Positions 1 through 24,476 of a stretch of DNA of 64,000 nucleotides are shown piece by piece. The stretch's first letter is position 1, and each line of letters begins with the position of its first letter. The DNA comes from Antedon mediterranea (Eukaryota; Animalia; Echinodermata). Both the position numbers and the translations under genes were made by a program. The DNA is taken from positions 14,852,948 through 14,916,947 of the forward strand of contig NC_092673.1 in the NCBI RefSeq assembly GCF_964355755.1, written 5' to 3'. The notes beneath the pieces are model-generated. The model searched no databases, was not told where the DNA came from, and saw nothing but the letters and a program-made list of their open reading frames with translations.

Positions 1-1097
1 AAATAAAAAAATAAAAAATAAAATAACGACCTCGCTCGTTTTCGCCGAGTCGCTCTTCGACGCTTTTGAAGTAATCTTTGCAAACGCTGACAGCGTTCTC
101 GTTGGTTTTCGCCAGCAAGTTTCTGTGAACGTCCAGTATCTGTTTAATCGAGGAGGCTCCGGTGATGTGAACGTCTTCTTGCATCTTCGGAAATCGCTGC
201 TTTAAAAGATTGCTTATTTGGTTCTTGAAAGCCCTGTCCGACGTGGCGTCGTCGACGAGTTCGTTGGCGGCCCTGAACGTAGCCGCCACGTCCACTTCCA
301 CGTGCTCGTTTTCGTTCGGGGCCGTCAACTTTTCGGTGAACTCTTCGAAGTCGCTCATCCTTTTCTTGTACTCCGGCCCCTGTTTGTCCTGCGCGATCTT
401 GTGTACGTTCAGAATGAAATCTCCGAACTGAACCCTCCAGAGATCCAACTTTTCTTTGAACGTGTCTAGCTTCTGTTTGTTGCACTCGTCCTTGCTCTTG
501 AGCATACACAGTATGGTGTTGAGATTGTCCTGCGAAACGGTGCTTGCAAGTTTTTCGATCGTCTCCACCTTTTTGCAGAATGTTCTCGTCAGACGCCATC
601 ACGTTCTCCGCAGGCCCGTTTTCTGCTCCACGCTTATACCCGAATCTCTCTCTGGCAACTCTAAGCGCCATTTCTTCGTCATCGCAGTAAACGGCCACCG
701 TTCCTTTCCTCTGGCCTGTCTCGACCAGAGAAACTTCTACGCACTTTGTGTGATCGGCTCGCCTGTAGCTGAGAGACAGGCAGTTCAGATTCCGAGAGAA
801 CGGGCTGTTGAGAAAGTTCTCGTCCTCGATCTCCAACAGGACGGCGACGGCCCCGCCGTTCTCCGTGTTGGATCCGGGGTACGTGCGATCTCTCCACCAT
901 TTCCGGACGGTGCCGATGCCGTCCGGGGAATGCACGCCTTTGCCGTTCTCGCGTCCCTTCACGTGCTTCCAACGAACCGGGAGCTTCTCGAGATTCCATC
1001 GTTTCACCACGTCGGGAGTCACGTCGTACTCTTCGTCCCGGGCCTCGAGTTTGACGTCCGTAACCACGTAGCCGACCGCGAACCTCTTTATCTTCAT
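1..1097 (-). CDS. Assemblin-like capsid maturation protease plus C-terminal scaffold-like region (1-nt frameshift at the T5 run 570-574; 3' end open at window edge)
   Basis: Motifs LPVRWKH, GIGTV, CLSLSYRR and EVSLVETGQRKGTVAVY parallel herpes protease LPLNINH, VGHV, GLSLSS and HVALCSVGRRRGTLAVY. Removing one base at 570-574 gives a stop-free, helix-rich continuation (QKVETIEKLASTVSQDNLNTILCMLKSKDECNKQKLDTFKEKLDLWR...) to position 1. Likely start is MKIKR at 1097. Confidence 0.78.
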
Positions 1098-1612
1098 CGC
1101 AGCCTCTTCAACTCCTTCTTTGCGTTCTTCTTTGCGTTCTTCTTTCTCCTGACGTATTTCATCGCTAAGGTACACCTTTCGGCTTTAAGGCGAGCGAGAT
1201 CCTCTTTGTCGTCTTCTTCTATCCTGCAAGGTCTGATGCTCAACGTTTTCTCCTTCAGGTCCACCAACGCCGTAATGTTTTCCGACATGCCGATGAGTAT
1301 CACAGTTAACCAGTCTATGTGTCTGACGTCGACGAACACCACTCCGTCTGCATGTTTCTTGTCGTCGACGATCGACCTGCAGAAAGACGACATGCGGCAA
1401 GCTATCAACGCCACGGTGGGATGGAGATCGGACCTCTGGAACGAAGAATGGTCGTTTGGGATTCCTAATCCGGCTATCTCGCAATTGCACCGAATGCCGC
1501 GAGAGAAGTGCACGGCTCCTGCAAGGAGAGAACAGTCGATGCAACAGCGCATGCCCCCTCGACACGAATCCAACAAAATCCGTAATTCAAGTTCCGATAT
1601 GGTACTCTCCAT
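1094..1612 (-). CDS. Cys-rich 172-aa viral hypothetical protein with basic C-terminal tail
   Basis: ATG at 1612 (MESTISEL); the longer ORF-track start lies in microsatellite; CRGGMRCCIDC..H..CNC cluster; RRKKNAKKNAKKELKRLR tail; its TGA overlaps the protease ATG. Confidence 0.65.
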   Translation of the reverse strand: MESTISELELRILLDSCRGGMRCCIDCSLLAGAVHFSRGIRCNCEIAGLGIPNDHSSFQRSDLHPTVALIACRMSSFCRSIVDDKKHADGVVFVDVRHIDWLTVILIGMSENITALVDLKEKTLSIRPCRIEEDDKEDLARLKAERCTLAMKYVRRKKNAKKNAKKELKRLR

Positions 1613-1634
1613 CGTGTGAAATTTTGTTTTTTTA

Positions 1635-1722
1635 CGTGTGTGTGCGGGTGTGTTTGTGTGTGCAGGGTGTGTTCGTGCGTGCAGGGTGTGTTTGTGTGGG
1701 TGTGGTGTGAGTGGGTGCCTGC

Positions 1723-1763
<41 letters not shown>

Positions 1764-1770
1764 GTGTGCA
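1635..1770. repeat. (TG)n/(TA)n microsatellite
   Basis: Visible dinucleotide runs in an intergenic spacer. Confidence 0.9.
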
Positions 1771-1984
1771 TATGAATTTTAAAGATTATGTTAGTAATTA
1801 ATATTTTTCGAAAAAAAAAATAAATAAACAGAAATTAATACAACAACAAAAAACGAGCCAAAGTTTCTTTGATTTTTATTCATTTATTTATTTTATATAA
1901 GTCTAATAATATTAATAGACTAAAATCATAGCATGCAATTACATTTTTTTTTTTTTTTTTTAGGTTTTCTTTCGTTGGGTGTTT

Positions 1985-3331
1985 TCATAGATAATTTCTG
2001 AGGTCGACAAACTCGTCTATCTTTATGTCGTATTCGCTCACCCGTAACCATCCGTGCAGAAGCATCAACTTCAGCATGACGCTGCGGTCATAGCGACATG
2101 TATCGATCTGAAGCGAAGAGAAATGAAATATCGACTGATGAGGTTCCACGGCGGCCACCAGCTTCCGTGATTCGAAATCCATGTTCTCGATGTGGAGAGT
2201 CCAGCGTGTTCTTTTTTTGCGGACGACGACGTCGTCGAATGACAGTTTCGTGCACCCCGTCAGCTTGACCAACCTCAAGTTTTCGTTCGAGTTCATGAGT
2301 TCGTCGAAGAAAGCGTCGGAAATTTCGGAATCGTGTATCTCTATCGTGGTCAGGTTCGTCAAACGTTCGAAAGGTAACGCGTCGACTTTGTCCAACGCGC
2401 CGTCTCTGACGTCCATCGCGAACCTTATTCCGGTCACTTGCGTAGGTTGGTTGGTGGAAGCAATTAACCTGGCCAGGCCCAGCTTGCTCAGTCGAGGTTT
2501 GGGCGAGAATTCTACGACTTCGAAATACGGCGTGATGTTGGTCGTGAGAAGGTACGAATCGTCCACCTCGCTCAGATCGAACGGTTCGGTCGTCTTCCAG
2601 CGATCGCTGACGGACGTCAAGTTCATGTGTCTCACCATGCACTTGGCCCTGTTGGTTCCGTCGTACTTTCGCAGCCACCTGTCGTAACCTTTGTCGTGAT
2701 GACGCGTAAGTTTGACGGAAACCGTGCAGCCGACGAACACCACGTAGCGTAAGTGAGGTCTTTCGTCGTATCCTGTTGGGCCTAAGGCCGAGACTAGCAT
2801 TTTCAGCGACACCCTCATGCCGACGCATCTCAACGTCCAGGGTCGCACCTTTCGGACAACTCTCGCATTTTCGTCGAACGGCAAACCGGAGCAATCGACC
2901 AACTCCACGTACTCTATGCTGTCGACGTCGTTCAGAACGTTCGTCAGGAAACGTGGTTCGAGATTGGCGTTGACGACCGTCAGCCACGTCAGGGTCGAGA
3001 AGGCCGACGGCGTAACCTCCGATGAAAATGTCGGATTTTCGTCTTTCTTGTTGGCTAGCGATATACGGATGCCTTCCGGTCTTTTATCGTGAGGCACGTG
3101 TTGCAGATCGTGAACGAGTAGGCGGTTCAGAGTCTCTCTCGAAATGTTCACTTCTTTACTTTCCATGTCTTTCAAGGCACCCGTCACCGTTTTCGTTCGA
3201 TTATACAATGCGTTACCAAAATGAGAATTCACATTGGCCACCTCCAAGAGGCTAAGATTATCGTCGCTCAGACAATTCACGATATCACACAACACTTCCA
3301 GCGGAATGTCTAAGACGTTGGTCGTTGACAT
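1985..3331 (-). CDS. F-box protein with a duplicated LRR-like domain (448 aa)
   Basis: N-terminal VLDIPLEVLCDIVNCLS..LLEVANVNSHF fits the F-box consensus; two similar blocks (GIRI..LTWLTV..VELVDCSGLPFD..WTL and GIRF..LTTIEI..VKLTGCTKLSFD..WTL). Confidence 0.75.
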   Translation of the reverse strand: MSTTNVLDIPLEVLCDIVNCLSDDNLSLLEVANVNSHFGNALYNRTKTVTGALKDMESKEVNISRETLNRLLVHDLQHVPHDKRPEGIRISLANKKDENPTFSSEVTPSAFSTLTWLTVVNANLEPRFLTNVLNDVDSIEYVELVDCSGLPFDENARVVRKVRPWTLRCVGMRVSLKMLVSALGPTGYDERPHLRYVVFVGCTVSVKLTRHHDKGYDRWLRKYDGTNRAKCMVRHMNLTSVSDRWKTTEPFDLSEVDDSYLLTTNITPYFEVVEFSPKPRLSKLGLARLIASTNQPTQVTGIRFAMDVRDGALDKVDALPFERLTNLTTIEIHDSEISDAFFDELMNSNENLRLVKLTGCTKLSFDDVVVRKKRTRWTLHIENMDFESRKLVAAVEPHQSIFHFSSLQIDTCRYDRSVMLKLMLLHGWLRVSEYDIKIDEFVDLRNYL

Positions 3332-3718
3332 TTTTGATTTTTCAAAAAAAAAAATATTCTCTCAAAAATTGGTTTGTTTTATTAAACAGTTTACTTGGTG
3401 ACATTTATATTGGTCAATTGCCTCTTTAATTTTTTTTTTTTTTTTAAATTTTGGTTTTTTTTTTCACCTCTGTTCAAGTGCAATAGTTGAATTAAAATTA
3501 AAAATCATCAAGTTTGCATGCATCCATCTTCAATTGTCCCAAACTACTTGTCTGATAAATCACATTGCTGTTTAAAGAAGAAGAAGAGAAAAAAAAAAGA
3601 AAACAAAAATCAGAAATAGATAATGGGAGGGGGTGGGGGGGGGGAGAAACTAAATAAAAGGGAAGAATACATCAACATCACACACACAAAAAAAAAAAAA
3701 ATAATAATAATCGTCTCT

Positions 3719-3907
3719 TTAACTTACATTAAACAACCTTTTTCTCTGCAAGCGAGGAGTAGGCTTGACGCATGGAGCACGAGGCGAACCGTCTTTAAAG
3801 CCTATGTACCCGTCCTTTGTCTTTTCAGCATCCTGCGTTCTTTTCGGTGTGACCAGTACGATTGACTTGTCTGAATAGTTTTTTAATCTTCTGAATCGAT
3901 ACATCAT
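3719..3907 (-). CDS. Small basic 62-aa protein with SP/TP sites and a C-terminal RKRLF motif
   Basis: GC-rich island between AT-rich spacers, same strand as neighbouring genes, ACAATG start context. Confidence 0.45.
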   Translation of the reverse strand: MMYRFRRLKNYSDKSIVLVTPKRTQDAEKTKDGYIGFKDGSPRAPCVKPTPRLQRKRLFNVS

Positions 3908-4077
3908 TGTTATGCGTCTCGAGTCTTGGGCAACTTTCGAAAAAAAAATTTTTTATTTTTTTTTTTTGGCCTGGCTAAAGGTTCTTGTGTCATATACTGC
4001 AGTGCAATAAACAGTTCGTGCAGTTTCCTTGGCCTCTTATAAACTCCTCACAAAAACAAAAAAATCGATGACGGTCG

Positions 4078-7000
4078 CTATCGTGAGAAAGCGACAGGAG
4101 TCGTGGGAGTGTAGTCTTCCGATCCGTAGAGATTGCGTCTTTCCGAAAGGAACGATCGGTCCTTCGAAGTCTTGAATGTCTTCGGAGGGTAATCCTCTTC
4201 ACGTGCATAACTCGTTTTATCGAGACGCGCACGTCGTTCATCGATCGTCTCGGTTTTGAGTTTGGCGATGAACTTGTCCACGTCCTCTTCGACATCGTCG
4301 CAGGTGTCGGTGTACCAGCTCAACGGGCTGATTTTGTAAGGTCTGTTGGTGGCGTCGGTCCTCGAGTTGCCGGCGTTCATGTCCTTTTGTTTCAAAAGTT
4401 TTCTGACCGATTCTTTCAAGCGATCGAGATCCTGTTGGCAAGACACAAGAAAGTGGACCGGTCGACCAAGTTCCGATTTGACGTCGAACACGTCGTCGTC
4501 AAATTCGTCTATGTTTCCCTCAAAGTTAGCTTTCACCAACTTCATTCGGATCACGTTCAAGGCGGCCGCATCGTGAGTGACCGTCCGACATTTCGGACAC
4601 TCGACAGAGTTCATTCGCGTGTCTTTGGCGCGATTCCTTATCATCTCCCGATAGCAGGACTTGTGAAAGATGTGCGCACCGTTCCAGTCCGCCTCTTCTC
4701 CTCGGCTGCGGTGATCGTTGGCGGCACGGATAAGCTCTTGAGCGTTCGGGGCGCTTTCGCCTAACGACTCGGCGAGTGCGATGGCCTTGCAAGGCAGGGC
4801 TTCTAGCGAACGACATCCGAACTCATACATGCATATGGCGCACGTTTCACGCTGGAATCGCATCACCTCTTCGGCGTACTCGCCAGAGGCGTTTGCAGCG
4901 TCGTCTTTGTCTAAACGATTGTACTCCATGGAAATCGTCAGTCCGCCGACCAGCGTCTCGTACGAATCTGCACCGTCCACGTCCACGACCCTCATGTACG
5001 GATCGGAGCGATCGTACCGTCTCTTCGCGAAAAGGTTGTTGAGTCGTCCGGTTTGGTTGGAATTGAAAAACCTGAAGACGTCGGAGAATACTTTGACGAC
5101 GGCCTGCCTGCGCTCGCGGTCTTTGCTCAGATCGAAAATGCCTCGCAACTGGCCGTAACAGTAGTCGAAGGCCGCTTTGCGACCGGCCTCCGACAGTTTG
5201 AATTTCGATCTAGTGAAATTCACTATGTTTTTTAAGACTTGACCAGCTGCCTCGTGGCCAAAGTTTACTCGCGGATCCATGACTTCGTCGACGATAGTTT
5301 TTATTCCTTTGAAAGCGTCGAGTCTGTGCACCCTGATAGCGGTCGGATTCATTACGGCCAAAGCGGTGCTTACTGCACCACCACCGCTGCTGTTTCCGCC
5401 ATCACCACCACCGCCACCGCCACCGCGGCCGCCACCAGGGCGACATTCGTTCGTTTCTTCCTCTCCTTCTTCTTCTTCTTCTTCTTCTTCTTCTTCTTTT
5501 TCTTCGTCCTCGGAAAACCTGTCGCCGCCGCCGTACTGTTCTCTAAGTCGTCTTTTAGCGTTCGTAACTGCGATTTCACCTTCTGGATCGAGTTTGGCGT
5601 TTATCAACCTAAAACTGTATTGGGCTGCCCTTCTCGCGTTCGCCTGCAAGATAGCGCCGTCGTAGCCCAGCGTTTTGTTAGTCAAAGCGCTCATGTCGTA
5701 TCCGTCGTTGTTGGAGACGGTCTGATCGAAGTCGGATTCGTTCATCCTCATGAGTTTTACCATCGGGTTATCCTCCACCGTTTTTTTCATGTTCGACAGG
5801 AAGTTCGTGTCGGTCCGGTTCTCGTCGATCCTCCTTCTGCTCACTGCCGTCGACATGGCCATGATCGCGTTGAACCTGTCGTCGTCGAGCACGAGTCTTT
5901 TCCCTTCCTCCAACATTTCTTCGCGCCAGCGTCTCTGAGCACGACACGCTTCGTCCATGTTCTTCACCTTCTTCCACATCACCAACTCGTTTTCGATGGT
6001 CGTCAGCCTGAAAAGATTCTCTGTGTGCACCTCGCAAAATTCGGTGGATCGTCTCGTAAAGTCCGGGTGGACGGCGGCGTCCGTCTCGTCTTCGAGGAAA
6101 GGGTACTGCCTCAGCAGCGTGTGCTCGTCCACTATCTGATACATTCGACTTCTTTCGGTGACGTCCACGTCCGTCACCTGCTTCACGTCCGCCATCGTGT
6201 ACAAGTGCTCCCGTTCCATGTGCTGCATACGATTGTAGTCGTTCTTGAAACGACGGTTGCACTTACGGACACGACAGCGCCGGCGCAGCAGGACTCTGAG
6301 CTGCGAATCATCGACTCCGGAAGCGACGGCCGTCCTGCGTTCGGGCGGTTGGTCGTCGTCGTCGATTTCCTTCTCCGTCAGCCGGGCTCCGATCTGTACG
6401 AGTCGCGCGGATCTCTCGCTCCAGTCGTACTCTCTCAGATACCTCTCGACACCAGTTCCCGCCTCCTGCATGTCTAAGCGTTTCAGAACGGTCTTGATCA
6501 GCTTGTCGAACTTCACGTTTCCGCCGCTCTCGTCTTCCAGCACCGAATCGACGGTAGACATTAGCCGAGCCGGAATCACGGCCACAGCTTTCGGCTCTTT
6601 ATCGAAAAAGTGGCACGAGTTGGCGCAGCATATGCGAGCGACCATCAGCACGGTCAGCTGTTTCGCTTGATTTCCTAAGGGGAACGCGTTGCCTTTGTTG
6701 ACTACGTTCTTGTTCAGAAAATGCCAATGCTGCTTGGCAATGCTGGTCAACGCTACCGCCACGGACGCGACGTTTCCGAAAGACGACCGAGACCTGAACC
6801 TGTCGATAGAACGCGGATCGTTGCCGACGTTCGAAAACTTCGCATCTCCGTTTGCGATCGCCTCTCTCATCTTCGGCATAGACCTGAGAGTGTAAAGCGT
6901 GTACGTTTCGTTATCGGCGGCAAGTTTCGACAGAGTTTCGACGATGCCGGCACCCATCGGTCGGTCTCCGGCCAGCCTCACCATCTGAGACAACGTTATG

Positions 7001-7284
7001 CAGTCCTTCTGCAACGTGTCGTCCAACCTGCTCTGAAACTCTCGCATGGACAGGATTTCGCCGCCTTTCACCTTTTCTTCGAGAAGCGGCAGTTCCGGTC
7101 GCGGTTCGTTACCGACCATGTACACTTTCAACTTCACGCTATTGATTTTGGGATAGCAGGGACCGTAACCTCCGACAGAAGGGAGTTGCACATCTTGGGC
7201 GGTGTAACGAGCGCGGGCAGCTTTCGATGTAGACGGGTAGTCCGTAGAACGAGGAAGGTACCTCTTTCGTTCGTATTTCGACAT
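4078..7284 (-). CDS. 1068-aa C2H2 zinc finger + RING-H2 protein (putative viral E3 ubiquitin ligase)
   Basis: C2H2 CRVRKC...HMEREH (~6205-6276); RING-H2 CAIC..LPC..HIFHKSC..CPKCR (~4585-4842); poly-E and poly-G linker; intronless. Confidence 0.8.
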   Translation of the reverse strand: MSKYERKRYLPRSTDYPSTSKAARARYTAQDVQLPSVGGYGPCYPKINSVKLKVYMVGNEPRPELPLLEEKVKGGEILSMREFQSRLDDTLQKDCITLSQMVRLAGDRPMGAGIVETLSKLAADNETYTLYTLRSMPKMREAIANGDAKFSNVGNDPRSIDRFRSRSSFGNVASVAVALTSIAKQHWHFLNKNVVNKGNAFPLGNQAKQLTVLMVARICCANSCHFFDKEPKAVAVIPARLMSTVDSVLEDESGGNVKFDKLIKTVLKRLDMQEAGTGVERYLREYDWSERSARLVQIGARLTEKEIDDDDQPPERRTAVASGVDDSQLRVLLRRRCRVRKCNRRFKNDYNRMQHMEREHLYTMADVKQVTDVDVTERSRMYQIVDEHTLLRQYPFLEDETDAAVHPDFTRRSTEFCEVHTENLFRLTTIENELVMWKKVKNMDEACRAQRRWREEMLEEGKRLVLDDDRFNAIMAMSTAVSRRRIDENRTDTNFLSNMKKTVEDNPMVKLMRMNESDFDQTVSNNDGYDMSALTNKTLGYDGAILQANARRAAQYSFRLINAKLDPEGEIAVTNAKRRLREQYGGGDRFSEDEEKEEEEEEEEEEGEEETNECRPGGGRGGGGGGGDGGNSSGGGAVSTALAVMNPTAIRVHRLDAFKGIKTIVDEVMDPRVNFGHEAAGQVLKNIVNFTRSKFKLSEAGRKAAFDYCYGQLRGIFDLSKDRERRQAVVKVFSDVFRFFNSNQTGRLNNLFAKRRYDRSDPYMRVVDVDGADSYETLVGGLTISMEYNRLDKDDAANASGEYAEEVMRFQRETCAICMYEFGCRSLEALPCKAIALAESLGESAPNAQELIRAANDHRSRGEEADWNGAHIFHKSCYREMIRNRAKDTRMNSVECPKCRTVTHDAAALNVIRMKLVKANFEGNIDEFDDDVFDVKSELGRPVHFLVSCQQDLDRLKESVRKLLKQKDMNAGNSRTDATNRPYKISPLSWYTDTCDDVEEDVDKFIAKLKTETIDERRARLDKTSYAREEDYPPKTFKTSKDRSFLSERRNLYGSEDYTPTTPVAFSR

Positions 7285-7517
7285 TACAATTTTGTTTGTT
7301 TTGTTTTTTGTGGTTTTTTTTGTGTTTTTTTTTTTCTGGTGATGATAATTTGCCGTATGTGTTTGGGTTTATTTCTTAAATTCTTATTTTTATTTTATTT
7401 ATTTTTAATAATTATTTTACATTGAAAATGTTCACATCGTTTCTTAAATATGATTTAAAAAAAGAAAAATAAATAAAAAGTAAAAGTAAAAAAACACTGT
7501 GTATACGTTTTTTTTTT

Positions 7518-8203
7518 TTAACGTCTGCTCGAGTGGCTTCTTCTGCCACCTAACAGATGGCGGTCGTCTGTGTTGTCCATCAATCTCGAGTATTCGTAAC
7601 CGTCGTCAAATTCGTCGTCATCGTTTCCTCCTCTTCCCCTGTTCCTGTCGCCCGAGTGCACGGTACTCGTGGACCACCAGTGGTGATAGACTCCGTATAT
7701 CATGTGGGCGACCGAAGCGATGACGGCGAGTATGAGGAGTACTCGGTTTGTGGTCGGAGTGAACGAGGAACTGCAAAACGGTTCGTGCACGTACTCCGTC
7801 GTCAAGTAACAGTACGGTATGCTGTACGCGAGGAGTCCTAACATGACAGCCGCGCCGACAGGTGCAGTGTGCAATATCATGCGTTCCCATACGGCCGGCT
7901 GTCTGTATCTTTTCAGATGTCTCTCAAACGAGAAACGAGTCATCAGGTACAAAAAGTTGACTATTATGGCAAAAACGTCAGCCTCTACCGCGTAAAGCAG
8001 AGGACGACTCACAAAAACAAAGTCGATCTTGCCGGGATGTCGATCGACTCGCTCGCTTTCGTTCACCAAGAAAACTGCGGAGATCAACACGCCCATCATG
8101 TAGAACAGCTTCTGGAGATGGAGCGCAAAGTGATCGTGCCTCTGTACTGGTGGACCACATAACCGTGGTACTTTATGGGCAGTTGGTCCTTTGTCCTTGT
8201 CGA
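7518..8203 (-). CDS. Multi-pass membrane protein (about 4 TM segments), possibly the last exon of a spliced gene
   Basis: Hydrophobic segments in the 193-aa ORF; frame stays open upstream of the ATG at 8099, through an AG acceptor-like site (TTTCATTAG) at ~8204. Confidence 0.6.
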
Positions 8204-9949
8204 CTAATGAAATTTTTAAGTTCCTACATTCCTAAAGCTAGGCATAATCTTTCTATAGCTATCTAAATTGGTTGTCCTAAGGTTTAATCTAAACAAAACA
8301 AAAAATAATAAAAAACAATAATAATAACAACAATTTAATAATAGTAATAATAATATTAATAATAATAGTATTACTATAAAATGGTAACGCTAGTAATAAA
8401 TTAATAGTGTAAAATAACTTATTTAAACTCACCTCTGTTAGAGCAGTAGGCCTAATTAAAAATATATGACCGTTCTAGCTACGGTATCTAAATTACATGG
8501 GTTGTCCTAAGGTTTAATCTAAACAAAACAAAAAATGATGATAATAATAATAATAATAATAATAAATAATAACTAATACTTAGATAATAATAATAAATAA
8601 TAATAACAGTAATAATAACAACTAATACTTAGATAATAATAATAATTATAACAATAATAATAATAGCTAATACTAAAATAGTAATAATATTAATTTATTT
8701 GAATTACCTTTGTTAAACCAATAATTAAAAAAAAATGACAACAGTCGTGATGAGCAGTTGGTTCTGTCGTCATTAAAATGATATTTCTTTTTGTTACAAT
8801 TACACAAACCACTAAAAAAGATGAATTCAATAACTTATTAAATTAATATAAATATGACCAATCTAAACTATTTAAAATATAGATTCACAAAAATTCATTT
8901 AAATAATAATTGAAAATAAATACATGACGTACTAAAAAACAATTACTGTATACTGTACTGAAAGCTATACTAGGCCTAGCATAGAGTGTCTATAAAAGTT
9001 ACAGGCCTAGCCATGGAGAAATTCTCCATGGCCTAGCTAAGGCTAGCTAGCTTATTATTAGTAGGGAGGCTAGGCCATACGGTTCACCTAGTCAATATTT
9101 AAAGCACAAACGTAGTCAATATTTGAAGCACATAAAATATATTGATGTTAGAGCTGGATATTTCTATCCATTCATCATTTTTAGCTTAAAATATACAAAT
9201 GTTGTATGTTGTTAGGGAGACCTGACTATGCACGCAGCAGCAGCAAATTCAGCGGAAAAGCAAGTGGGCCTAGAAAAAGCGGTCCCTACAAAAACACAGC
9301 AAACACACATAGTAATGCTAGAATCAATGTTTTGAGAAGCTACTATGATGCTATATGATTTATTAAGTTATTAATACTACTTTACAGATTGTAGTTATAT
9401 ATAAAATATTAATTAACAAAATTAAAAGATAGTCTTACAATTCAAGTTGAAATAGTCAGCAAATGACACAGCGAAAAATGTAAACGCACAAGTTTTGGAC
9501 TCTTCCATTATGAAAAATAGGGATGTATTAAACTAAAAAAGAACCTAGAGAATATTGAATAGCAGGTTCTTTTTATTTTGTTCTCATAATATTTGAAGTT
9601 TAAGCAACATTTAACAAGAAAACCTATCATGAAATAGAAGTGAAGATATAAAAATCTACAACCGGAAAAAAAAAATCATATTTTCCCCATTTTATAATGA
9701 TAAGTTACAAAAACTTTTTTAAACTACTTGTGGATTTTTTTCATAGAATAAAAAAGTGAGTTGTCTTTAAAGGGTTGTAATAAAAAATGCCATCAGTTTT
9801 GAAAGTGTCATCATACAGTTTCTGAAAGCCTATAAATTTATAAACATTTTGATATATAATTCAGCTTGTTAATTTGCCGGTTGCACTAACTCTTTAAATA
9901 AGCCACTTTTTGGGCATTGCTTCCTCTACTATTACCGATTTTTTTAAAT

Positions 9950-10590
9950 AGAATGCTTGTTTCAAGCAATATTTTTCTCAATTTATTTGATAGAATTCTT
10001 GATTCAAGCAATATTTTTCTTAAAGTAGGTAAGAATATTCCGATTTTGATTTTACAGAATTCTTGTTTCCAGTAATATTTTTCTTAAAATAGGTAAGAAT
10101 TTACCGAATTTCATTTTATAGAGTTCTTGTTTCAAGCAATATTTGTCTTAAAATAAGTAAGAATATTCCGATTTGTATTTTATAGAATTCTTGTTTCAAG
10201 CAAGATATTTCTTAAAATAAGTAATAATATTCCGATTTGTATTTTTTTGAATTCTTGTTTCAAGCAAGATATTTCTTAAAATAAGTCAGAATATTCCGAT
10301 TTGTATTTTTTGAATTCTTGTTTCAAGCAATATTTTTCTTAAAATAAGTAAGAATATTCCGATTTGTATTTTTTGAATTCTTGTTTCAAGCAATATTTTT
10401 CTTAATATTTTTCTTAATATTCCGATTTGTATTTTTTAGAATTCTTGTTTTAAGCAATATTTTTCTTAAAATAAGTAAAAATATTCCGATTTGTATTTTT
10501 TGAATTTTTGTTTCAAGCAATATATTTCTTAAAATAAGTAAGAATATTCCGATTTTTATTTGTAGAATTCTTGTTTCAAGCAATATTTTT
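9950..10590. repeat. ~61-bp tandem repeat, about 10 copies
   Basis: Recurring AATTCTTGTTTCAAGCAATATTTTTCTTAAAATAAGTAAGAATATTCCGATTTGTATTTT. Confidence 0.92.
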
Positions 10591-11139: not shown

Positions 11140-11535
11140 ATAAGCGGATACTAAAATTATGAAAATAAAAGTAATACTGTATATAGTAAATATTGAAGTA
11201 AAATGTATTAATCTGAAATGCTGAAAGTTTTAAATGAAATAAAACCACACCCTTCTGTTTTTACTAAACTAATTCGTTATCAATTAATCATTGATTTAAC
11301 ATTAAGTAACATACATTAAGCGGATACTAAAATTATGAAAATAAAAGTAATATATAGTAAATATTGAAGTAAAATGTATTATTCTGAAATGCTGAAAGTT
11401 TTAAATGAAATAAAACCACACCCTTCTGTTTTTACTAAACTAATTCATTATCAATTAATTATTGATTTAACATTAAGTAACATACATTAAGCGGATACTA
11501 AAATTATGAAAATAAAAGTAATATAGTAAATATTT
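11140..11535. repeat. ~173-bp tandem duplication (partial further copy at ~11693-11780)
   Basis: TAAGCGGATACTAAAATTATGAAAATAAAAG recurs at ~11141, ~11317 and ~11488. Confidence 0.85.
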
Positions 11536-11775: not shown

Positions 11776-14700
11776 CTAATTGCTGGATTTGAACTTGTTG
11801 TAATCTACCAATGATAGTTCAACTGCCTTTGCTAAGTGAACAGGTGTTGATGTATCACCTAGCACTAGCTGTTGGAGTATTGTGAGGCCTACTTCTTGAG
11901 CTTTTGGATAGTCAATATCCAACAAGTAAAAGGTGGCGAGGAAAGTGACTAGAGCCTCATCTAATTTTGTTATTTCCATTGTAGCAACAATTGCTCTCCC
12001 AACTACAATGTACGACATTTCTTTGGTTAAAAGAAGTACAGGAACATTGCCGGATCGGCGTGAGGCCCAGGTCTCTGGATCTTCATGGTCCTAAACAATA
12101 AAAGAGATAAATATAGTTTATTTTATATTAGTCTATTATTTAAGTATTTTTTTACATCATTTAATAATTGGGTATGGTGTTTAGCGTCCTATATCTGGGG
12201 CGGTGACCTCAAAATTCTGACACGCTTGCAATATCAGAGCAGTGATAAGAAGAATTTTACATTATAAGACATCAGGGTGTGTGGATTTATATTTTTTAAT
12301 CACAAAACTTTATCTATTATTCTTATTGGTACTGTAGTTAAGTTAATAGGGTCTATCTAAATATATTTTTAATATGACTGTTTACTTTAAAAAGGACAAA
12401 TGTAAAACGGGTGCTTCATCCTGATTGATATGCTTTTATTCCGGATCAATATGTTTACAATAATAATCATACAATTAAATGATAGAAATGTAAATTTTCG
12501 TTTAATTGTATGATTTTAATTATTGCAAACATATTGGATACTTTAAATGTTAAGCTATGATAAATTTGACATTCAATGTTCAAAAAATATTAAAGAGACA
12601 ATTAAATAATATTTTTTGTATGTACAAAAATAATAAATGTTATTATTTAAAATTTTAAAAACACTAAATACCTTCAAGTTGTCGACAAGGTCGGCACACA
12701 TTTTAGTTGATTTATTTCCAACAAATATCGTTGAGAGATTTGTCAGAATATGGGTTATCTTTGAACCTAAACAAAAACAAATTGAGAACATAAATGAGTG
12801 TAATAATGTATGAACATAAATTTAGTAAAGCTCAAGTCTGTAATGTAGTCTACAGTATTAGGTAGCCAAGGTTACAGGGTGGGAGGTCCAGGAGAGCATT
12901 ATTCTGCCAAAAATAAAAGTAATTTCTAATTCAATTTTAGCTGTCAATAGGAGGAGTCAAACCTAGAATTAAGAAACATTTGCTTTGCAAATTGTTGATA
13001 CGTACACAGGTCAAACTGTACAAAATACTTATGAAAAAATTAAGGTGTGTAAAAACATATAAACTTACCAGATGGAGGACTGGTATTTTTTTTGGACATA
13101 CCAAAATATACAATACTGTCTTTTTCTTTAGACAGACTTGCCAAGCATTTTTTTAAAAAGCTTTCCCTCGCCTTTCCTTCTCCTATGCCTAAAATCCGTC
13201 TAACTTCTTCAATTATCTAAAAAATAAAACAATAAATTGAACATAACAATTTTAGTATGGAGTATAATGTTTTTAAATCCCTCATAGGGCCTGTTCGTAG
13301 GGGTTGAAAATACCAGCTTAATCCCGATTTCCGTTCGCGTGATCCAATTAACTTTTGCCTCAGGCTACAAAAAATTTGAGGCAAAATGTTCACCAAATTT
13401 GCAGGTTATTTCAGCGATAATCCAATTATACTCGGCCTTCGAGGATAATAAATCTCCGATAGAGGCAATGTGTCAAATTTTGACAAACGTTCGCTACCTA
13501 GGCCCGTCATTTCTCCTACGAAGCTCTTCCATACACGCTTCGAGAGCGATCGTCAGCTGGTGCTGTCCTCTCTGTTGGTGTAGACCGCTTAGGAATACAC
13601 CCCGTTTAGTAGGCCTAGCTGGTCGGTGGTGTTTCCGTCGTGTAACATTGGGCTCAAATTCTTCGTCAATGAGTAAAATAATGGTCGTCAGGAGAAGGCA
13701 TATTTCGGCAGGATTATCGGCGTTAAGAGGCATAAGGTTTGTCGCAAGGATAAGCAGTGTAAAAGGTAGCAAGTAATTGTTATTGTAAAGAAAGATCGCG
13801 AGTAAAAAATATACAACACGAAACTAGCGTGCGAAAATGGGGTAGTAGGTTGTAAAGACAACTGACCTTAAAACGTAATTTCCGGTTTGTGATTCGTCGA
13901 TTAAGCATTTAAGCGGTTAAATATTTCAAGTACGAACAACGCTCAATTTATAACCCGAGGCATGGGTGAAATTAAGCGCTTATTTTAACCACCGTACGAA
14001 CACGACCATAGATATTTCATGGTTACATTGCAAAATAATTGTTAAATTTTATTATTTTAAGTAATTTTTGGCTTAAAAATACCTCCACATGGTCCTTGAA
14101 GCAAGGATACTTCGTTAGCAATTGAGAACACCGGCTCTCTGCTGATGTCTCCGTAAGCCATGCACGCCTGGCTACGAATTCTTTATTTAGGTAGGAATTT
14201 ATAATTGCCACTGAGGGTTTGCTCTTGCCGCATTCTTTGAATAATGCATTATAATGCCTTTCCATCATGCCTTTGTTGTCCGGTTCTTCAATTCAATAAT
14301 AAAAATTGTTATCCATACGTGACAAAGCCAAAAGGAGGGATGTAAAAACTTTTTAATAACTGAAATATTTGTTTAGGACCCACATTTTAGAAACAAAAAT
14401 GTCAGTACATGATCATCTCATTTTCATCTCTCTTGTAAAGTCAACTTTTAAACTTGAAATGGAATTTAATATTTATACATTATATTTGAAAACAATTTAG
14501 AAATAATGTTTATATTTGAATGTAAATTTGATGCAATTCAGTTTTTTTTCAAAGCAAGAGACAAATAATTAATAATTTGACGAATTATACGTGATCATTT
14601 TATAAATTATAATGTAATTGTAATGACATTTAATTTAAAAAAACGATGGACTTACGTTAAAATACAAAATGTTGATGATGTACGCCATCCTACGACCTGA

Positions 14701-17700
14701 TGCATACGATTATAGTGCTAAGTTGTACCTCTTATATATCTCTATATACAGTGTAGCATTTTATTCTAAATGCTCACCTAATAAGCTCATTCAACCCCTG
14801 TGACAGTAGTAGCCAATTTTTGAACACTGTATTTCTTACCATAAATAAGCAGTGAATCGTCTGTATCTGTTTCTCTGTCTGTTTCCTTATCAACACGAAA
14901 AACATCTATCTTTGTCTGTGTTTGTGCACCAGATTCTAACTCCTCCGCTCCTCCGCTGAAACCATCATCAGTTTTGCTTGACTTTTTGGTTTTTTTTTTT
15001 GAACCCCTAACGTTATACATTCTTTTTTTCAATTGCTTATATATCAGGCCCTAAAATAATAGAAAACAAGCCTTGTTACAATTCGCTAATGTAGAAAACG
15101 CCTGCTATTGTCGTAATAACCGTTAATGTAGTAATAGATATACCTCTAGCTTAATGTAGAAACAGTAAATTTAGAAAATGTATACAGTATTTTACAAACC
15201 TATGTCTAAACTTGTGCAAATGCATCTCTTTACTTTATAGCTACTGTATCAGTATTAGTGGATATAGCTAAGTTGAGCTAAGCTAAGTTGAGCTAATCTA
15301 AGTTGATAACTAAGTAAAATACAGTAACTTTAAAAATCTTGATGACATTACATTTTTGCAAAATATATTAACATTTTATATTGTATTTATAATAATAATA
15401 AGTTTTGGAGTGGAGTTGTGCGGCCTGGTGGTTATGATGCTTGGCCGCCAATCCAAGGGTCCTGGGTTCAAGTCCTGTCATACAGTATGTCAGGATTTTT
15501 TCTAATGACAATTTACAACTCCACTCCCAAAGACTTGTAATAAAGACTTTGTTTTTGTAGAGCATTGTGTATACTGTATATGTTTGTCTCGTGAACGGAT
15601 TGCCACCTTTAAGAAGGATAGTGATTGAATTTGCTTATGGTTATCCTTGGCAATTTGCCTAAATATATAAAATAAATAAAAAAAAAAGTTTGGCTAGCCT
15701 CAATAACTTTCTTAACCAACCAATCACATGTGGATATAAAGCAAGACTAACCTTGATGAATGTAAATACTGTCTGTCAAATATTTCAAATATTTAACAAT
15801 GGGTTCTGGCTTGAAATTCACACTGGCAAACCATAGTAATTTGATATTTGATTAGTAGATTTTTCAGGATTTTAAAAATTCATTCAAAAAAAAAATTAAC
15901 TTTTTAGTTTACAAACTAATAACTGATACTGAGTGACAGTAATCTAATAATTATTAATTCATTTTTATAAATTTAGTGTTTATCCAGTTTACAGACAGAC
16001 ACATCAAAGCATTTAACTTGATTGATTGATTTATCAATTCTGCAACATGATAAATGCTTATTGATATTAGCGCCATAGAACAAAGTTACAAAAACACAAA
16101 GTGTTTCATTAGCAATGATAGATACACTTTTAAAGAAAAAAATAATGTTGTTTGTTGCCGCTTTTCTTATTTTTTTTGACTTAATTAAATGATTGTCTTG
16201 TTAATGTTATGGACAGACATAAAAAAATGCGTTATGTTTGTATGTCAGACACACAATCATTTAATTGGGTTAACAAAAATAATTATTTATTTTTAGTAGC
16301 TATTACTATTGTTGATGTTATTATTAAATGAGAGATTTAAATGTGTCATTGTCAGGATCATGATATAACAACTAATTGTTTTGTTTTTCAAACACAATTT
16401 CAGTATATAATTTTGCAATTTTCATTTTTATTCCTACTGATACACGAAATCTGAGTGTTTATTTATTTACTTATTTCAATTTAAAGTTCTTGTGAAATGT
16501 TCATCCAGAACGCTCTGATTTTAGAGAACTTAACTTTTTAATTTGGTATTAATTAGATAATTCCAGTAATTTACCAACAAATGTTCTTACTTATCGTTGG
16601 GTTGCTCATTTTGGTAGATTTGTACATAACATAAATACAAAACTATTTCTAGCCTAGTTAATTTTAAATAATAATGTTAAGATCTAAATGGCTAAAGCAA
16701 AAAAATATTTAAATGAAACTTACATGTTTTGTTTCCTGATCCTTCAAAGAGGGATAAGTAATTACCACACTTTTGGCCATTTCCATGATTTCATCATTGG
16801 TGGGCAATCTGTTCCACGGAGAATTGTGGGCAATTGAAATCATGTTATTGACAGTACCCCGTATTATCCTGTGGCGCAGCTCACTAGGAATTTGCCCAGA
16901 ATTTGAAGCGTTTGATACATCCTTATCCTGATAAACTGTATATTTAGGTGATTTCGCTTGAGACACCCATTCTCTTGTTCGAAATTCAGATGTAGATGAT
17001 CCAGGTAGTGATACTGAAAAATCACTTTTTTTTTCAGAGTATTCAACACTTTTCTCCTCATGAAATTCCTAAGAAAAATTATTTACAAAAATTCAATTAA
17101 AAAACCTAGAGAATAATGCTACTGTATGTACATGCAGTGACATGCCTCCTTTTACTGTTAGTAGTTACTGCAAATGTAACTAGGATTGTGTGTTCAAATG
17201 TTTTCTGCAGCTGTGATTTTCTTTTAGTTTTATTTTACATAGAAAATTAATATCACATGTGTGATGAGCGTTTCAAAATAACGTTTTTTTTCACCAGAAA
17301 AAAACTTAGCTCATTATTTTTTCCATAACATTAACAATAAACATTTTAGATTATTATAATACAATGCCTGTTATATAAATTATGTGTTACATAATTAAAA
17401 TCCATTTTTGTCATTGATTGTCAAATTGCATTGTATTTGTAATGAATAGCAATTTTGGTCAAGTGTCTGGATGTATTTAAACGCATTATTTTATGCAATG
17501 CATTTTAAAATAATTTCATACATAAGATTGTTTACCTTCTTACCACTAAAATGCCTATTCTTAAAACAATATTTCATAACAACTTATAATTCATTGCATT
17601 GACCAATTCTTTTGATTTCTTTCTTTTTTGAATTGCAAGTGATTTTCTGACTTTTTTGTGTATAATTTACTGTTTGAAAATTTGAATTTAAATACACAAT

Positions 17701-19774
17701 ACGAATAGGCGAAATATATATAAAACACATTTTTGACAGTACTTACGCTGGATAAAACTTTCCAAATTTTGGACCTTAAAAGGATGCCTTTTATTCCTGG
17801 CGTTGGGATTAGTTCGCCTAATGCCTCATAGCAGATGTCCTTCATGTCTTCGTTAGTCACACCACCATCTATGAAAAAAAACATTAAACATAAATATAGC
17901 GCCATGCTATTAGTAATAAAGTTAAATTAAATCAAATCTATTCTAGGCCTACGTAGGACCAACCCATTCATTTAATTTACAATGTACACCACAATACAAG
18001 TTCTAAATTAAATATATGAGCTACTACTAGCAGGGCCGTAGCCAGGATTTGTCAAGGGGGAGTTCGGACACTAAGTATTTGGGTCACCCCCTCCCCCTCC
18101 CCCTGGGGTGGGGCCTGAGGCGAAGCGAATTTTGTTAAATGACACCCCTAGATGGCCGGAAAAGACACTCTAATGCAGCATGCTACCAATGAGCAAAACG
18201 ATCGTACTTGGACTCATGGACTATTTAAACGATAACATTTGTTGCCGTATGTTAGATGCGCGTGCTCTGTGCGGAACCGCCGATTGTTTGATCATTTACT
18301 CGGTATTTTATTTTGCGTTCAAGTTCAATGCGAACGTACGTCTAGGAGAAGCCCCGAAAAAAGCACACTGGGTGAAGGCAAATGCAATTCTTATTATAGC
18401 TCTATCTATAATATTTATTTACAGCAATTTTGTTGAGGAAATTAATTATGCCAATGTAAATAGGTGATATTGATACATTTGAGTACGTATCGGCTGGTGG
18501 TCTAGAAAAAAATAATCGGATGCCATAATGTGAACTACAGTACATGATACCATAGATATTATAGTGTAAAATATTAATATTCACTATAATCCTCTGTGAT
18601 ACATTACACTTCATAGCCACACATAAATACTGATGTATGTCGGAAGGCTATATACTTTATGCATGCTGTCTGACTGCCAGTGATCTAAACAATTGGTACG
18701 CAGGTGTCTGGCGGTGTCCTTTGTACGAATCGTTCGTGCCTCAGCTCGCTGTGAGACGCGTCAATATCATGTTACATGCAGGGACCAAACATTTATTTTT
18801 CAGGTTAAAATCGGCAATTCATTTGCAACTCTTAGAAATTTACAGACACGTATCGCTCGAAGTACGCTCATACAGGGAAGAAGGTACTGTATGAGTTATT
18901 TCGAACAAGTTTACGAATTTTTCAATTTACGAACAACTTTTTGTACTGGGGGGCACGTATTTGGACGATTTTCGGAGATGAGGGTGAGGTATTGGGCATG
19001 TCGGGGATGGGGGTTCGCAGTCGGTTAAGGGGGGTTCGCTGTAAAGGGGGGGTTCGCCCGAACCATAAAACCCCCCCCTGGCTACGGGCCTGACTAGCCT
19101 ACCTAGGGCCTAGGCCTAGTACTACTACTACTACTTCTACTAACGCCACGTATTGTACACCCACATACAGTAGCCCCGACAATTTTTTCCTCTGCCAAAG
19201 GTTTGAACTAAAATAATAAAAAATGTAATGTTCTAGCAAGCCTATCTTATTCTTACACTCTGGATGGATTAGAGACAGACATAGGCTAACCTATTTTGTT
19301 AATCAAAAATCATATACTAACAGCGATGCCTAGCCTGGGATACTAGGCCTTGTACTAGTTTTAGTAGTACTAAATAGTAGCAGTAAGCTATTATTATAAC
19401 ATAATAGGCCTAGGCCTATAGCCTATTATACCTACTACTACTACTCCTAGCCTAGGCCTACTATCTATGTATCTATGTACTATCAACATTTCTATATTTA
19501 TGAAGACGAATATTACAGTTTCTTGAGTATCTTGTATTAGGCCTAGTTAGGCTTATTAGAGGCTAATGCCCTCCTCTAGCTAGAGCCTAGGCTCATTAGC
19601 CTTTATATTAGGCTATAATATTATAATACAATTAGACGTACCTACAAAAAATACACATTTTAATTAATAATAAATACTGTATAAATAGGCTATATATTAT
19701 TATTACGCACCTGTTAAAATGTTGGCCACATCTTCATCTATCTCTCGGATTTTCGACAACACGTCCTTCGACAT
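11776..19774 (-). CDS. Intact 8-exon SAM-domain / SAMD3-like gene (type often carried by EnSpm/CMC transposons)
   Basis: Exons ~19711-19774, 17747-17868, 16723-17068, 14839-15050, 14083-14286, 13069-13216, 12672-12766, 11776-12090 join in frame with GT-AG sites; N-terminal SAM-like segment; C-terminal FLATFYLLDIDYP..LTILQQLVLG motif. Confidence 0.78.
13287..14007. mobile_element. PIF/Harbinger-like non-autonomous TIR element in an intron
   Basis: Imperfect TIRs GGGCCTGTTCGTA..GGTTGAAAATA / TATTTTAACC..TACGAACACGACC; 3-bp TSD ATA. Confidence 0.6.
15410..15565 (+). mobile_element. tRNA-derived SINE fragment (second copy at ~34828-34952)
   Basis: A-box-like GGCCTGGTGG and B-box GGTTCAAGTCC; near-identical copy in a Ginger intron. 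Confidence 0.65.
18031..19092. mobile_element. Non-autonomous TIR element (hAT-like CAGGGCCG termini) in an intron
   Basis: TIRs CAGGGCCGTAGCCAG / CTGGCTACGGGCCTG; ACTAG on both flanks. Confidence 0.65.
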
Positions 19775-23305: not shown

Positions 23306-24476
23306 CGCCGTGGTTAGGATTCCGGCACCGGAACTCAACTACCCACTGTTAGGGAATCCGACACGCTATTGCGCATGCCCAGAGCTCTGGGAAGTGAATT
23401 ATAGCAAAGAACTTATAACACAAGAATCTCCTGTTCTTCAATTTGCATTCAAAACACAGTATCGGAAGTACAGGGTTAAAAGGTCAAACTGGGCGACGCC
23501 ATTTCACAGCATGGAGCAGCGCCCCCTCCAAACTAGGAAGTCAATTACTCTACCCCTCTAGAGTATTAGCAGATCCCCTCTATGATTTTGACTTTCTAAT
23601 TTGATGCGGGCGCCCTACTCCTCAGTCAATTACTCTATCCCCCCTAGAGCATTAGCAGATCCCCTCTATGATTTTGACTTTCTAATTTGATGCGGGCGCC
23701 CTACTCCATGGCTCACAATGGCGCCACCCATAGCTCTATTCTATCCCACAATGCCTTTCGAAATTGTTACGCGCTTCGGACGAACAGGAGATTCTTGTGT
23801 TATAAGTTCTTTGATTATAGCTTGCACTTTTTAGTGCCACACACACACCACTGAGAGTCGGAGTGTTAGGATTTACTGTAGCCCTAGATAGTCGTTGCAC
23901 GGGGGGAGCGAGCGATGGATGAAACTTGGCCTATGCCATACATGAATTAATAATTAAAATACGACTACGCCACGCGTTAAAATAATTATAATGATATTAA
24001 TAAGAATCAGTATCTATCTAAGAATCGTAATGCTAGCGTTGCGACCCTGACTTCCCGAACAGTTTTTTGACATCCACGCGGTGGCTGCCGTCAACAAATC
24101 AATTTGTGATTGCATGTTGTTATGTACAGTAAAATGCGTTATGAAAAATCATAAAACTAGTCATGTAATTATATAATTCATAATGATATGAAGTTTATAT
24201 ATGAATGAAGCAACCACTTTTTAATTACAAAATAAATAGGCCTACTGGTCACGTCTAACTGGTAGCCCTAGCCTAGATTAGTGGATCCCTTATTTACTAT
24301 TATAGTATTAGTAGGCACCTAGGCTAGTGTTCGCCGTGTGGCGCAGCTATGAAATGATCCATCGCTGTTGATAAGTATAGAGTCGCCGATTACCTCGCTC
24401 TGGGCATGCGCAATAGCGTGTCGGATTCCCTAACGCTGGGCAGTTGAGTTCCGGTGCCGGAATCCTAACCACGGCG
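23306..24476. mobile_element. MULE-like MITE inside the Copia 5' LTR
   Basis: ~80-bp TIRs (CGCCGTGGTTAGGATTCCGGCACCGG...); 9-bp TSD TAAATAAAA/TAAATCAAA. Confidence 0.82.
23405..23813. mobile_element. P-like MITE nested in the MULE-like MITE
   Basis: 32-bp TIRs CAAAGAACTTATAACACAAGAATCTCCTGTTC; 7-bp TSD ATTATAG; internal ~85-bp tandem duplication. Confidence 0.75.

Follow-up and report, generated by a model that had tools for sequence, protein, structure and literature searches.

The left end of the window (the whole stretch of 64,000 nucleotides that was analysed) raises the question of what its compact block of genes is, from which group of viruses it could derive, and how it came to adjoin animal DNA. 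The reading preferred here is that the genes in positions 1-8140 are viral and adjoin a host repeat, and that they probably belong to an unclassified lineage of Herpesvirales integrated in a chromosome of a marine invertebrate, most likely an echinoderm.

The sequence-only reading of this locus had described co-oriented, GC- and CpG-rich genes with AT-rich spacers beside intron-rich, transposon-bearing DNA, and composition, strand and flank frames agree with that description. GC content is 0.487 in 1-8200 versus 0.331 in 8201-64000, the observed/expected ratio of CpG is 1.44 versus 0.81, and each large viral ORF has a GC content of 0.51-0.54 and a CpG ratio of 1.26-1.53. The viral genes in 1-8140 (Table 1) are intronless and all lie on the minus strand; about 86% of this region is coding, and the spacers of 170-390 bases between the genes are made of A/T runs. 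By trinucleotide content, 12 of the 127 500-base intervals score virus-like, every one inside 1-8000 and none beyond. Poly(A) signals are found 3' of the F-box, RING and membrane genes. A tailed phage (Caudoviricetes) as a contaminant is contradicted by this eukaryotic layout, in which poly(A) signals accompany genes of RING and F-box-like type, and by the lack of phage-family matches: the viral-block proteins gave no match below E 0.01 in PHROGs, and tblastn against 50,697 phage records gave none. Genes for capsid, triplex, portal, terminase, polymerase and helicase-primase are absent from the 64-kb window, so that the assignment to Herpesvirales rests on one gene.

Table 1. Features of the viral block and its joint with host DNA (positions in the window)
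Feature	Position	Strand	Basis or remark
Scaffold part of protease-scaffold gene, in a different frame from the protease	29..571	-	46% identity to matching part of P0001
Capsid maturation protease, predicted assemblin fold, ~165 aa	573..1097	-	Predicted model, Foldseek/VIA, Pfam, conserved residues
172-aa Cys-rich ORF, unknown family	1094..1612	-	Stop overlaps protease start codon
448-aa ORF, likely N-terminal F-box, leucine-rich-repeat-like rest	1985..3331	-	Weak Pfam match; repeats by eye
62-aa basic ORF, doubtful gene	3719..3907	-	Third-position GC 0.44 vs 0.60-0.72 in other ORFs
1068-aa ORF, split RING finger near C-terminus, C2H2-like motif at ~residue 340	4078..7284	-	
Multi-pass membrane protein gene, 5' end cut by joint	7518..8140	-	Stop at 7518
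Virus-host joint, without inserted bases	8140..8141	.	Contigs of public runs
Multi-copy host repeat, interior	8141..8292	.	Right end unmapped

The flank to the right is AT-rich and contains introns, LINEs, LTR elements, copia and integrase frames, exons with canonical splice sites and a tRNA array. The spliced exons, LINEs, copia frames and tRNA array identify the host as an animal, to whose DNA the block is joined in run X1; together with the poly(A) signals they bear out the earlier proposal of a eukaryotic gene layout in an animal host. The motif TAGGCCTA occurs 20 times to the right of 8200 (0.5 expected) and not once in the viral block; we take this motif to be linked to echinoderms, and the host group rests on it. 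A spliced gene at ~11,776-19,770 has no Pfam match and looks, on inspection by eye, like the accessory genes that CACTA elements carry in animals.

Eight of the 12 public runs listed (four samples, three studies, two organism labels) contain at least half the words of 1-9900; the other four, with word shares of 0.05-0.11, were excluded, and no RNA run carrying these words is among those listed. The joint was examined in the contigs of X1, X5, X6 and X7, of which X5 yielded no matching contig, a result that may be false. A junction at 8.2 kb had been anticipated, and a joint does exist in X1, at 8140/8141 rather than at 8200. It is crossed there by a 60-base piece (8111-8170, depth 10) with 30 letters per side, one below the 31 that a bridge requires. 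The window may have been assembled from the sample of X1 itself, and the joint was seen in no independent sample. In X1, X6 and X7, viral contigs cease to fit at 8140 and host contigs begin to fit at 8141. Contigs of the membrane gene extend beyond 8140 in three of the four runs with other letters that are identical among them, and host-repeat contigs, of 2146 and 3050 bases and 4-5 times as deep as the viral contig, extend leftwards in three runs with shared non-viral letters. Because both a viral gene and the interior of a host repeat are cut, the joint is a break-and-join scar, and the earlier view of it as the flank of a whole integrated genome is not borne out. A Helitron end at 8141, considered since the host side begins with TC, was rejected: in two runs the repeat continues leftwards for 2-2.9 kb with identical letters, and the window does not contain the viral continuation. 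The viral block contains no transposase, the joint is not bordered by a terminal repeat, and tandem TTAGGG, TTAGGC or TTAGG does not occur within the window.

Presence and absence across samples, which the sequence-only reading had pointed to, could be followed in part: X1 holds the joint piece together with an uncut viral copy (a 7702-base contig, depth 5.7), and X6 and X7, two other samples, showed only the uncut copy, which is 98.9% identical; both also gave 36-base pieces at 7590-7625, read as low-complexity chance matches. The integration is therefore likely to be real, and the joint is not a genome end. The same data bear on an alternative without inherited insertion, in which the viral DNA comes from a free or episomal infection and the joint arose somatically or as a chimera of library or assembly. 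Such an origin would agree with the uncut copies in all three samples, with the shortness and possible source of the joint piece, and with a frame break (see below) that lies in a short homopolymer stretch and might be an error of long-read sequencing. However, the joint piece is deeper than the uncut contig in X1, and the similar host-repeat/viral depth ratios in X6 and X7 (4.1 and 5.1) would be unexpected in a lytic infection, with the caveat that copy number cannot be read from contig depth; we regard this alternative as unlikely.

Integration of viral DNA being the preferred reading, the identity of the virus depends on the first gene, which, on its predicted fold, is a herpesvirus-type maturation protease plus scaffold. 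The protease model has middling confidence (pLDDT 65, pTM 0.66); a poor single-sequence model (pLDDT 44) was left out of the fold search. Foldseek against the PDB found 51 chains at E<=0.001, and all 28 rows listed are herpesvirus proteases. VIA, a re-ranking of these Foldseek matches and not a separate match set, placed 37 herpesvirus entries at Z 8.1-10.2, the best being 4v08_A (Z 10.2, rmsd 3.5, 132 aligned), with the next unrelated fold at Z 5.9. The putative catalytic and conserved residues are His45, Ser108, Glu121 and Arg130; His/Ser/Glu/Gly/Arg are conserved in 24 of 25 aligned protease rows, with Glu121 as the third catalytic residue likewise in 24 of 25. The assemblin-type protease proposed from the bare sequence thus finds agreement in fold and residues, the fold being predicted. 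Pfam Herpes_ORF28 matched at E 2.3e-5 and 24.2 bits, below its curated cut-off of 40, and Peptidase_S21 (PF00716) at 13.7 bits, below its cut-off of 27. PDB sequence searches with the protease alone or with its profiles gave nothing significant.

The protease frame starts at 1097, the scaffold frame is open from 598 to 2, and the gene switches between them near 565-575; at 1-28 the scaffold enters an A/T tract, through which it leaves the window. In P0001 protease and scaffold share a single 456-aa frame, and they form one frame in all eight of the first relatives, which argues against programmed frameshifting at the break; if the break is real, the window copy is likely damaged. Each of these eight proteins has FNYW at the end and, 21-41 residues before it, a [VIL]-x-A-[SGAC] motif, which 4-12% of shuffled sequences would also show; 15 of 16 later relatives have the motif near the C-terminus as well. 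The motif resembles the self-cleavage consensus of herpesvirus protease-scaffold proteins, in which a fused protease and scaffold with a C-terminal cleavage-like motif is the typical layout. This layout is read from the relatives, since the window copy is frame-broken and its end lies beyond the window. The reading frames, thought at first to be nearly intact, are largely open, with the exceptions of this frame change and of the membrane gene cut by the joint.

Ten near relatives of the window protease (39-76% identity) were found in public assemblies and form with it a group of 11, next to a sister group of 14; scans of IMG/VR and JGI metagenome contigs found no related locus. One relative sits on a contig of 144,009 bases, and a contig of 23,348 bases also carries a relative. 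HHalign aligned the two groups at 99.7% over 317 columns spanning protease and scaffold. The protease tree, which contains no named herpesvirus sequence, left out P0031 (an RRM protein, a false match) and the fragments P0012, P0014, P0015 and P0025. All 14 sister rows match Herpes_ORF28 at 27-45 bits, one of them above the cut-off, and this alloherpesvirus domain is the only family profile matched by both the window protease and the sister group. Identity to named herpesvirus proteases is only 14-22%, in line with the divergent herpes-like lineage postulated earlier.

That low identity would also suit a block derived from a duplodnavirus outside Herpesvirales, either mirusvirus-like or of a wholly separate eukaryotic lineage. 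In BFVD the top match, abalone herpesvirus K4JX75 (16% identity, E 7.5e-6), leads by a narrow margin over rows from orthoherpesviruses, alloherpesviruses and phages, with prohead proteases of phages standing among the herpesvirus entries at ranks 5, 13 and 17. The Atlas gave no match for the window protease, and the clusters nearest to P0001 are phage proteins (0.92-0.94). Mirusviruses, too, are described as encoding a maturation protease (PMC10827195). The window contains neither a capsid module of mirusvirus type nor nucleocytovirus-like informational genes. The five other ORFs of the block match no herpesvirus family. Against such an origin stand the ORF28 domain as sole matching profile, the abalone herpesvirus at the top of BFVD, the herpesviral fused layout and the animal host, and we consider it very unlikely.

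Among the five remaining ORFs, the 172-aa one has no match in Pfam, PHROGs or NCBIfam, and the 62-aa one has none in PHROGs or NCBIfam. The F-box and RING genes named by the sequence-only reading do have Pfam matches, all of them weak and below the curated cut-offs: F-box-like at residues 7-39 of the 448-aa ORF (E 0.022), which has a single weak match among PDB sequences (E 0.47), and RING in the 1068-aa ORF (E 0.025-0.8). The latter has two full-length relatives (51% and 47% identity), its Cys/His residues are kept in all three rows, and its product is likely a ubiquitin ligase, judging from these motifs; an MCM3 match of the RING profile was an acidic low-complexity match. For the membrane ORF, a weak Sdh_cyt match (E 2e-5) and a MprF match were read as hydrophobic helices.

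Least probable of all is a fusion in which the host repeat is a DNA transposon that now mobilises the virus, as in Teratorn: viral DNA does adjoin a multi-copy repeat, a gene resembling by eye a CACTA accessory gene lies to the right of the joint and mobility genes are reported in deep-branching endogenous Herpesvirales (see below). Against it, the joint disrupts a viral gene and does not appear among the contigs listed for the two further samples that carry the virus, most copies of the repeat occur without viral DNA, and neither transposase nor terminal repeat lies beside the joint.

In a live virus of the Herpesvirales lineage favoured here, the protease-scaffold protein would occupy the interior of the procapsid and free its scaffold by self-cleavage at V/I-x-A-S/G sites; host ubiquitination would be redirected by the F-box-like and RING proteins. 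Since the joint falls within a viral gene and within a host repeat, it would have arisen through non-homologous break repair, either on integration or in a subsequent deletion. Five of seven differences between the window and the other-sample copies are silent, versus 33% expected for transitions (P 0.043, on seven changes). The virus may still circulate or have integrated recently, since the copies elsewhere are so nearly identical and differ mostly at silent sites. More tentatively, the lineage could be an undescribed family-level branch of Herpesvirales with genomes of ~140 kb, circulating and repeatedly entering the germ line by break repair without transposase or telomeric repeats. The branch so conceived consists of the two sister groups (11 and 14 protease-scaffold genes), with marine invertebrates such as echinoderms as hosts.

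Herpesvirales comprises three named families with only a handful of invertebrate members. If true, a deep branch known from some two dozen genes, of which one lies on a 144-kb contig, would bridge the herpesviruses of fish, molluscs and amniotes, and the protease profile would serve as a marker for finding the lineage. With joined and uncut copies coexisting and varying between samples, herpesvirus entry into the germ line without transposase or telomeric repeats becomes testable. The surprise is lowered because Herpesvirales have already been reported in lancelet (PMC12373286) and, in a preprint, in starfish and ribbon-worm genomes (bioRxiv 10.1101/2025.04.19.649669).

Compared with known systems, the locus shares with Herpesvirales the predicted assemblin fold and catalytic triad, a protease and scaffold in one protein (in the relatives) and an animal host. 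Like the assemblins of orthoherpesviruses (HCMV, HSV, KSHV, PRV), the window protease has their fold (Z up to 10.2), their order of catalytic motifs and, through its relatives, the fusion to a scaffold. Unlike His157 of HCMV, its third catalytic residue is Glu, which aligns to the H157E mutant; the His-Ser-His triad and a Peptidase_S21 match at cut-off, typical of Orthoherpesviridae, were not found. In Alloherpesviridae the ORF28 protease (PF25720) is described with the same His-Ser-Glu triad and an oxyanion Arg nine residues after the Glu, although identity to alloherpesvirus proteases is 14-21% and the curated Herpes_ORF28 cut-off is not reached. This spacing of nine recurs in AciHV-3 of lake sturgeon (E240, R249), reported as integrated in chromosomes beside transposon clusters, as is likely here; AciHV-3 joins at its own terminal repeats near telomere-like repeats, whereas the window has none (PMC12031113), and the telomeric repeats of telomere-integrating herpesviruses (HHV-6, MDV, AciHV-3) do not occur at the joint. 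Teratorn and Teratorn-like viruses, described as teleost alloherpesviruses fused to piggyBac (PMC5822658, PMC10175614), are likewise endogenous herpesviruses with largely open frames; the analogy drawn earlier finds no support on the visible flank, which has neither transposase nor terminal repeat, the left part of the element lying beyond the window. Five peptide motifs of both protease groups were absent from the 12 Teratorn-related supplementary files searched, which gives no support to Teratorn being the sister group.

BelcheriHV-1, a malacoherpes-like genome integrated in the lancelet Branchiostoma belcheri, has a similar setting: its description also has a GC-richer block flanked by host repeats, copies in some individuals and few differences between copies. 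Its genome is visible over 150 kb, and malacoherpesvirus matches are reported for 27 of 62 ORFs (PMC12373286), whereas in the window only the protease matches, by fold, and the viral block terminates at a break within a gene. Rosani et al. 2023 (Front Mar Sci) or Mushegian et al. 2018 may have listed members of the lineage earlier. The endogenous herpesviruses of starfish and ribbon worm were placed by their DNA polymerase between Orthoherpesviridae and Malacoherpesviridae, in a preprint that also reports mobility genes in deep-branching endogenous Herpesvirales (bioRxiv 10.1101/2025.04.19.649669). A polymerase is missing from the window, and the profile matches of its protease point towards alloherpesvirus ORF28; like the viral block, the starfish and ribbon-worm viruses are divergent, embedded in marine invertebrate genomes and outside the named families. 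If the host is an echinoderm, the two lineages, compared by description, are possibly the same.

The feature is real and behaves like an endogenous herpesvirus segment. The first 8.1 kb of the window have a GC content of 0.487 and a CpG o/e of 1.44, against 0.331 and 0.81 in the rest, and their frames, all on the minus strand and without introns, are separated by short A/T spacers and occupy ~86% of the block; the GC- and CpG-rich, co-oriented genes of the sequence-only reading are thus confirmed. AATAAA or ATTAAA is found 93-121 bases past the F-box-like, RING and membrane genes. Of 127 windows of 500 bases, 12 resemble viral coding DNA in their trinucleotides, every one left of 8000. The DNA to the right is contiguous, intron-rich and transposon-bearing, as that reading also held: it contains spliced exons and a tRNA-Ala array, and 14 of the 51 frames scanned have a Pfam match (copia, LINE, integrase, DUF4218). 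Its CpG loss is mild at 33% GC. The motif TAGGCCTA, over-represented in echinoderms, hemichordates and some fishes, occurs 20 times in this part (0.5 expected) and is absent from the viral block; together with the GC content and the mild CpG loss, it makes an echinoderm-like host somewhat more likely than not.

The junction proposed at 8.2 kb lies at 8140/8141, with no inserted bases. Contigs from four of twelve public sequencing runs were examined over 7500-8292. Viral contigs in runs X1, X6 and X7 cease to fit at 8140 and continue with identical other letters, in X1 on a contig of 7702 bases; this continuation was searched for in the window and is absent there. Because the 30 letters past 8140, inspected by eye, contain no stop in the membrane-gene frame, the joint cuts this gene. 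Host contigs fit from 8141 on and continue leftward with the same non-viral letters; with lengths of 2146 and 3050 bases and depths exceeding that of the viral contigs by factors of 4.1 and 5.1, they place the host side inside a multi-copy repeat. Contigs of X5 gave no match to 7500-8292, possibly a false negative. A frame is open over the joint (7518-8231, minus strand), with 30 host-repeat codons in frame with the cut gene, and acceptor-like sites lie at ~8238-8289; a chimeric host-virus transcript is conceivable, and the arrangement may be due to chance.

A piece spanning the joint was found in X1 only. Its 60 bases, at depth 10, are identical to the window and extend 30 letters to each side, one letter too few for the bridge rule, and X1 may be the same sample as the window source; within these limits, it places the junction in the data of a public run. 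That the virus is free and the joint somatic or chimeric is unlikely. Among the twelve runs listed for window 1-9900, eight (four samples, three studies, two organism labels) contain at least half of the 1027 words, and since the host part makes up less than one fifth of this query, such shares require viral words. Over 633 bases, the viral copy of X6 and X7 shows 7 differences from the window, and five of these are silent (33% expected, P 0.043), a weak sign that the copies may have diverged under selection, i.e., in replicating virus.

In Pfam, protease residues 1-165 (frame start 1097) score 24 bits against Herpes_ORF28 (E 2.3e-5), whose cut-off is 40, and give a faint match to Peptidase_S21. 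A structure model built from nine sequences (pLDDT 65, pTM 0.66) has 51 PDB matches at E<=0.001, the best 28 of which are all herpesvirus proteases (TM 0.42-0.51); after re-ranking, 37 herpesvirus entries have Z 8.1-10.2 and the next fold 5.9. His45, Ser108, Glu121, Gly128 and Arg130 are conserved in 24 of 25 aligned rows, which, with the predicted fold, upholds the proposed assemblin-type protease. In BFVD, abalone herpesvirus is the top row (16% identity), and the proteases of ortho- and alloherpesviruses (14-21%) follow without a gap, as do phage prohead proteases; judged from the model, therefore, the fold is clear and the family is not. A duplodnavirus outside Herpesvirales is quite improbable as the source. 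Glu121 aligns to position 157 of the HCMV enzyme. For the alloherpesvirus AciHV-3, the same His-Ser-Glu-Arg residues are described, with Arg likewise nine residues after Glu (PMC12031113). One relative alone, P0011, which is on a long branch, shares with orthoherpesviruses a His instead of Glu as the third catalytic residue.

Single-domain and profile searches gave two and eight protease relatives, respectively, and a third search gave 22 matches among 1.84 billion representatives (one false, P0031, and four fragments); none of the relatives carries a name. In all eight first relatives, the protease runs into a helical domain in a single frame of 447-515 aa, ending in FNYW, with a [VIL]-x-A-[SGAC] motif 21-41 residues before the end; shuffles give one in 4-12%. 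Among the 16 relatives found later, 15 share the motif and a 274-aa fragment lacks it. It resembles the herpesvirus maturation-site consensus, and would be consistent with such a site. In the window, protease and scaffold are in different frames, and the change near 565-575 may be a sequence error or a mutation. Of the nearly intact ORFs first described, the largely open frames stand, except for this change and the cut membrane gene. The scaffold frame meets an A/T tract at 1-28, ~110 residues short of the end of P0001, the closest relative; this may be an intron, a second break or an insertion.

A midpoint-rooted protease tree, without outgroup, separates 11 near rows, including the window copy, from 14 far rows (support 100/100). 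The far group (P0016-P0024, P0026-P0030) consists of 14 unnamed protease-scaffold proteins with 28-36% identity to the window protease, and its homology with the near group extends across 317 columns, scaffold included; 13 of the proteins have V/I-x-A-S followed by 8-18 residues at the terminus. They score 27-45 bits against Herpes_ORF28, and by profile the alloherpesvirus ORF28 is nearer to them than to the near group. The Herpesvirales features tested are present; the tests for Orthoherpesviridae were negative, and the alloherpesvirus profile cut-off was not reached.

Two full-length relatives of the 1068-aa frame (51% and 47% identical) conserve the RING Cys/His residues and a C2H2-like motif, and the 448-aa frame begins with a region weakly matching the F-box; from these weak RING and F-box matches, ubiquitin-ligase roles may be suggested. 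The 172-aa, 62-aa and membrane frames gave no informative match in databases including Pfam, PHROGs and NCBIfam. For both P0001 and P0003, the latter closest to the RING protein, the longest contig listed has 23,348 bases, which makes linkage of the two genes in another virus probable. Another relative, P0007, is on a 144,009-base contig.

Repeats and other features of the host part are given in the table. By eye, the spliced gene resembles the accessory genes of animal CACTA transposons, and the integrase-OTU layout is Ginger-like. A 1.2-kb insert splits the left LTR of the copia element and carries inverted repeats of 81 bases (23305-23385, 24397-24477). A copy of LINE sequence precedes the DUF4218 fragment, and anticodons AGC, CGC and TGC are intermixed in the tRNA-Ala array.

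Features of the host part, in window coordinates
Feature	Position	Strand	Details
64-base tandem repeats	9984-10590		
171-base tandem repeats	11141-11534		
Spliced gene	11776-19770	-	canonical splice sites; 0 Pfam matches
Copia element	23203-28536		two LTR parts 99% identical
Four LINE reverse-transcriptase frames and a CACTA-type DUF4218 fragment	30964-32862, 42324-45467, 48518-51340, 53321-54647, 56184-56765		two LINE frames near-whole
Decayed integrase frames (rve, H2C2, SH3), then OTU protease frames	35137-40892	-	
Tandem array of a 216-base unit	58246-62194		18 copies, each tRNA-Ala-like; 10 by ARAGORN, 15 by Rfam

The joint probably arose when non-homologous repair linked a herpesvirus genome, or part of one, to the host chromosome, either during integration or through a deletion that came later; a single flank fits both. 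Four matching bases, noticed by eye two bases away from the joint, weakly hint at microhomology, and telomeric repeats are absent at the joint. The Teratorn-type analogy first drawn is not supported on this flank, where neither transposase nor terminal repeats occur at the joint, and a Teratorn-like fusion is improbable. In a narrow test on parts of the endogenous-herpesvirus literature, with PMC10827195 and 10.1101/2023.11.03.565523 as background only, the window protease family is not described; the herpesvirus DNA already reported there includes an integrated malacoherpes-like genome in lancelet (PMC12373286), herpes-like scaffolds in lancelets and Capitella (PMC5552708), AciHV-3 integrated in sturgeon (PMC12031113) and Teratorn in teleosts (PMC5822658; PMC10175614).
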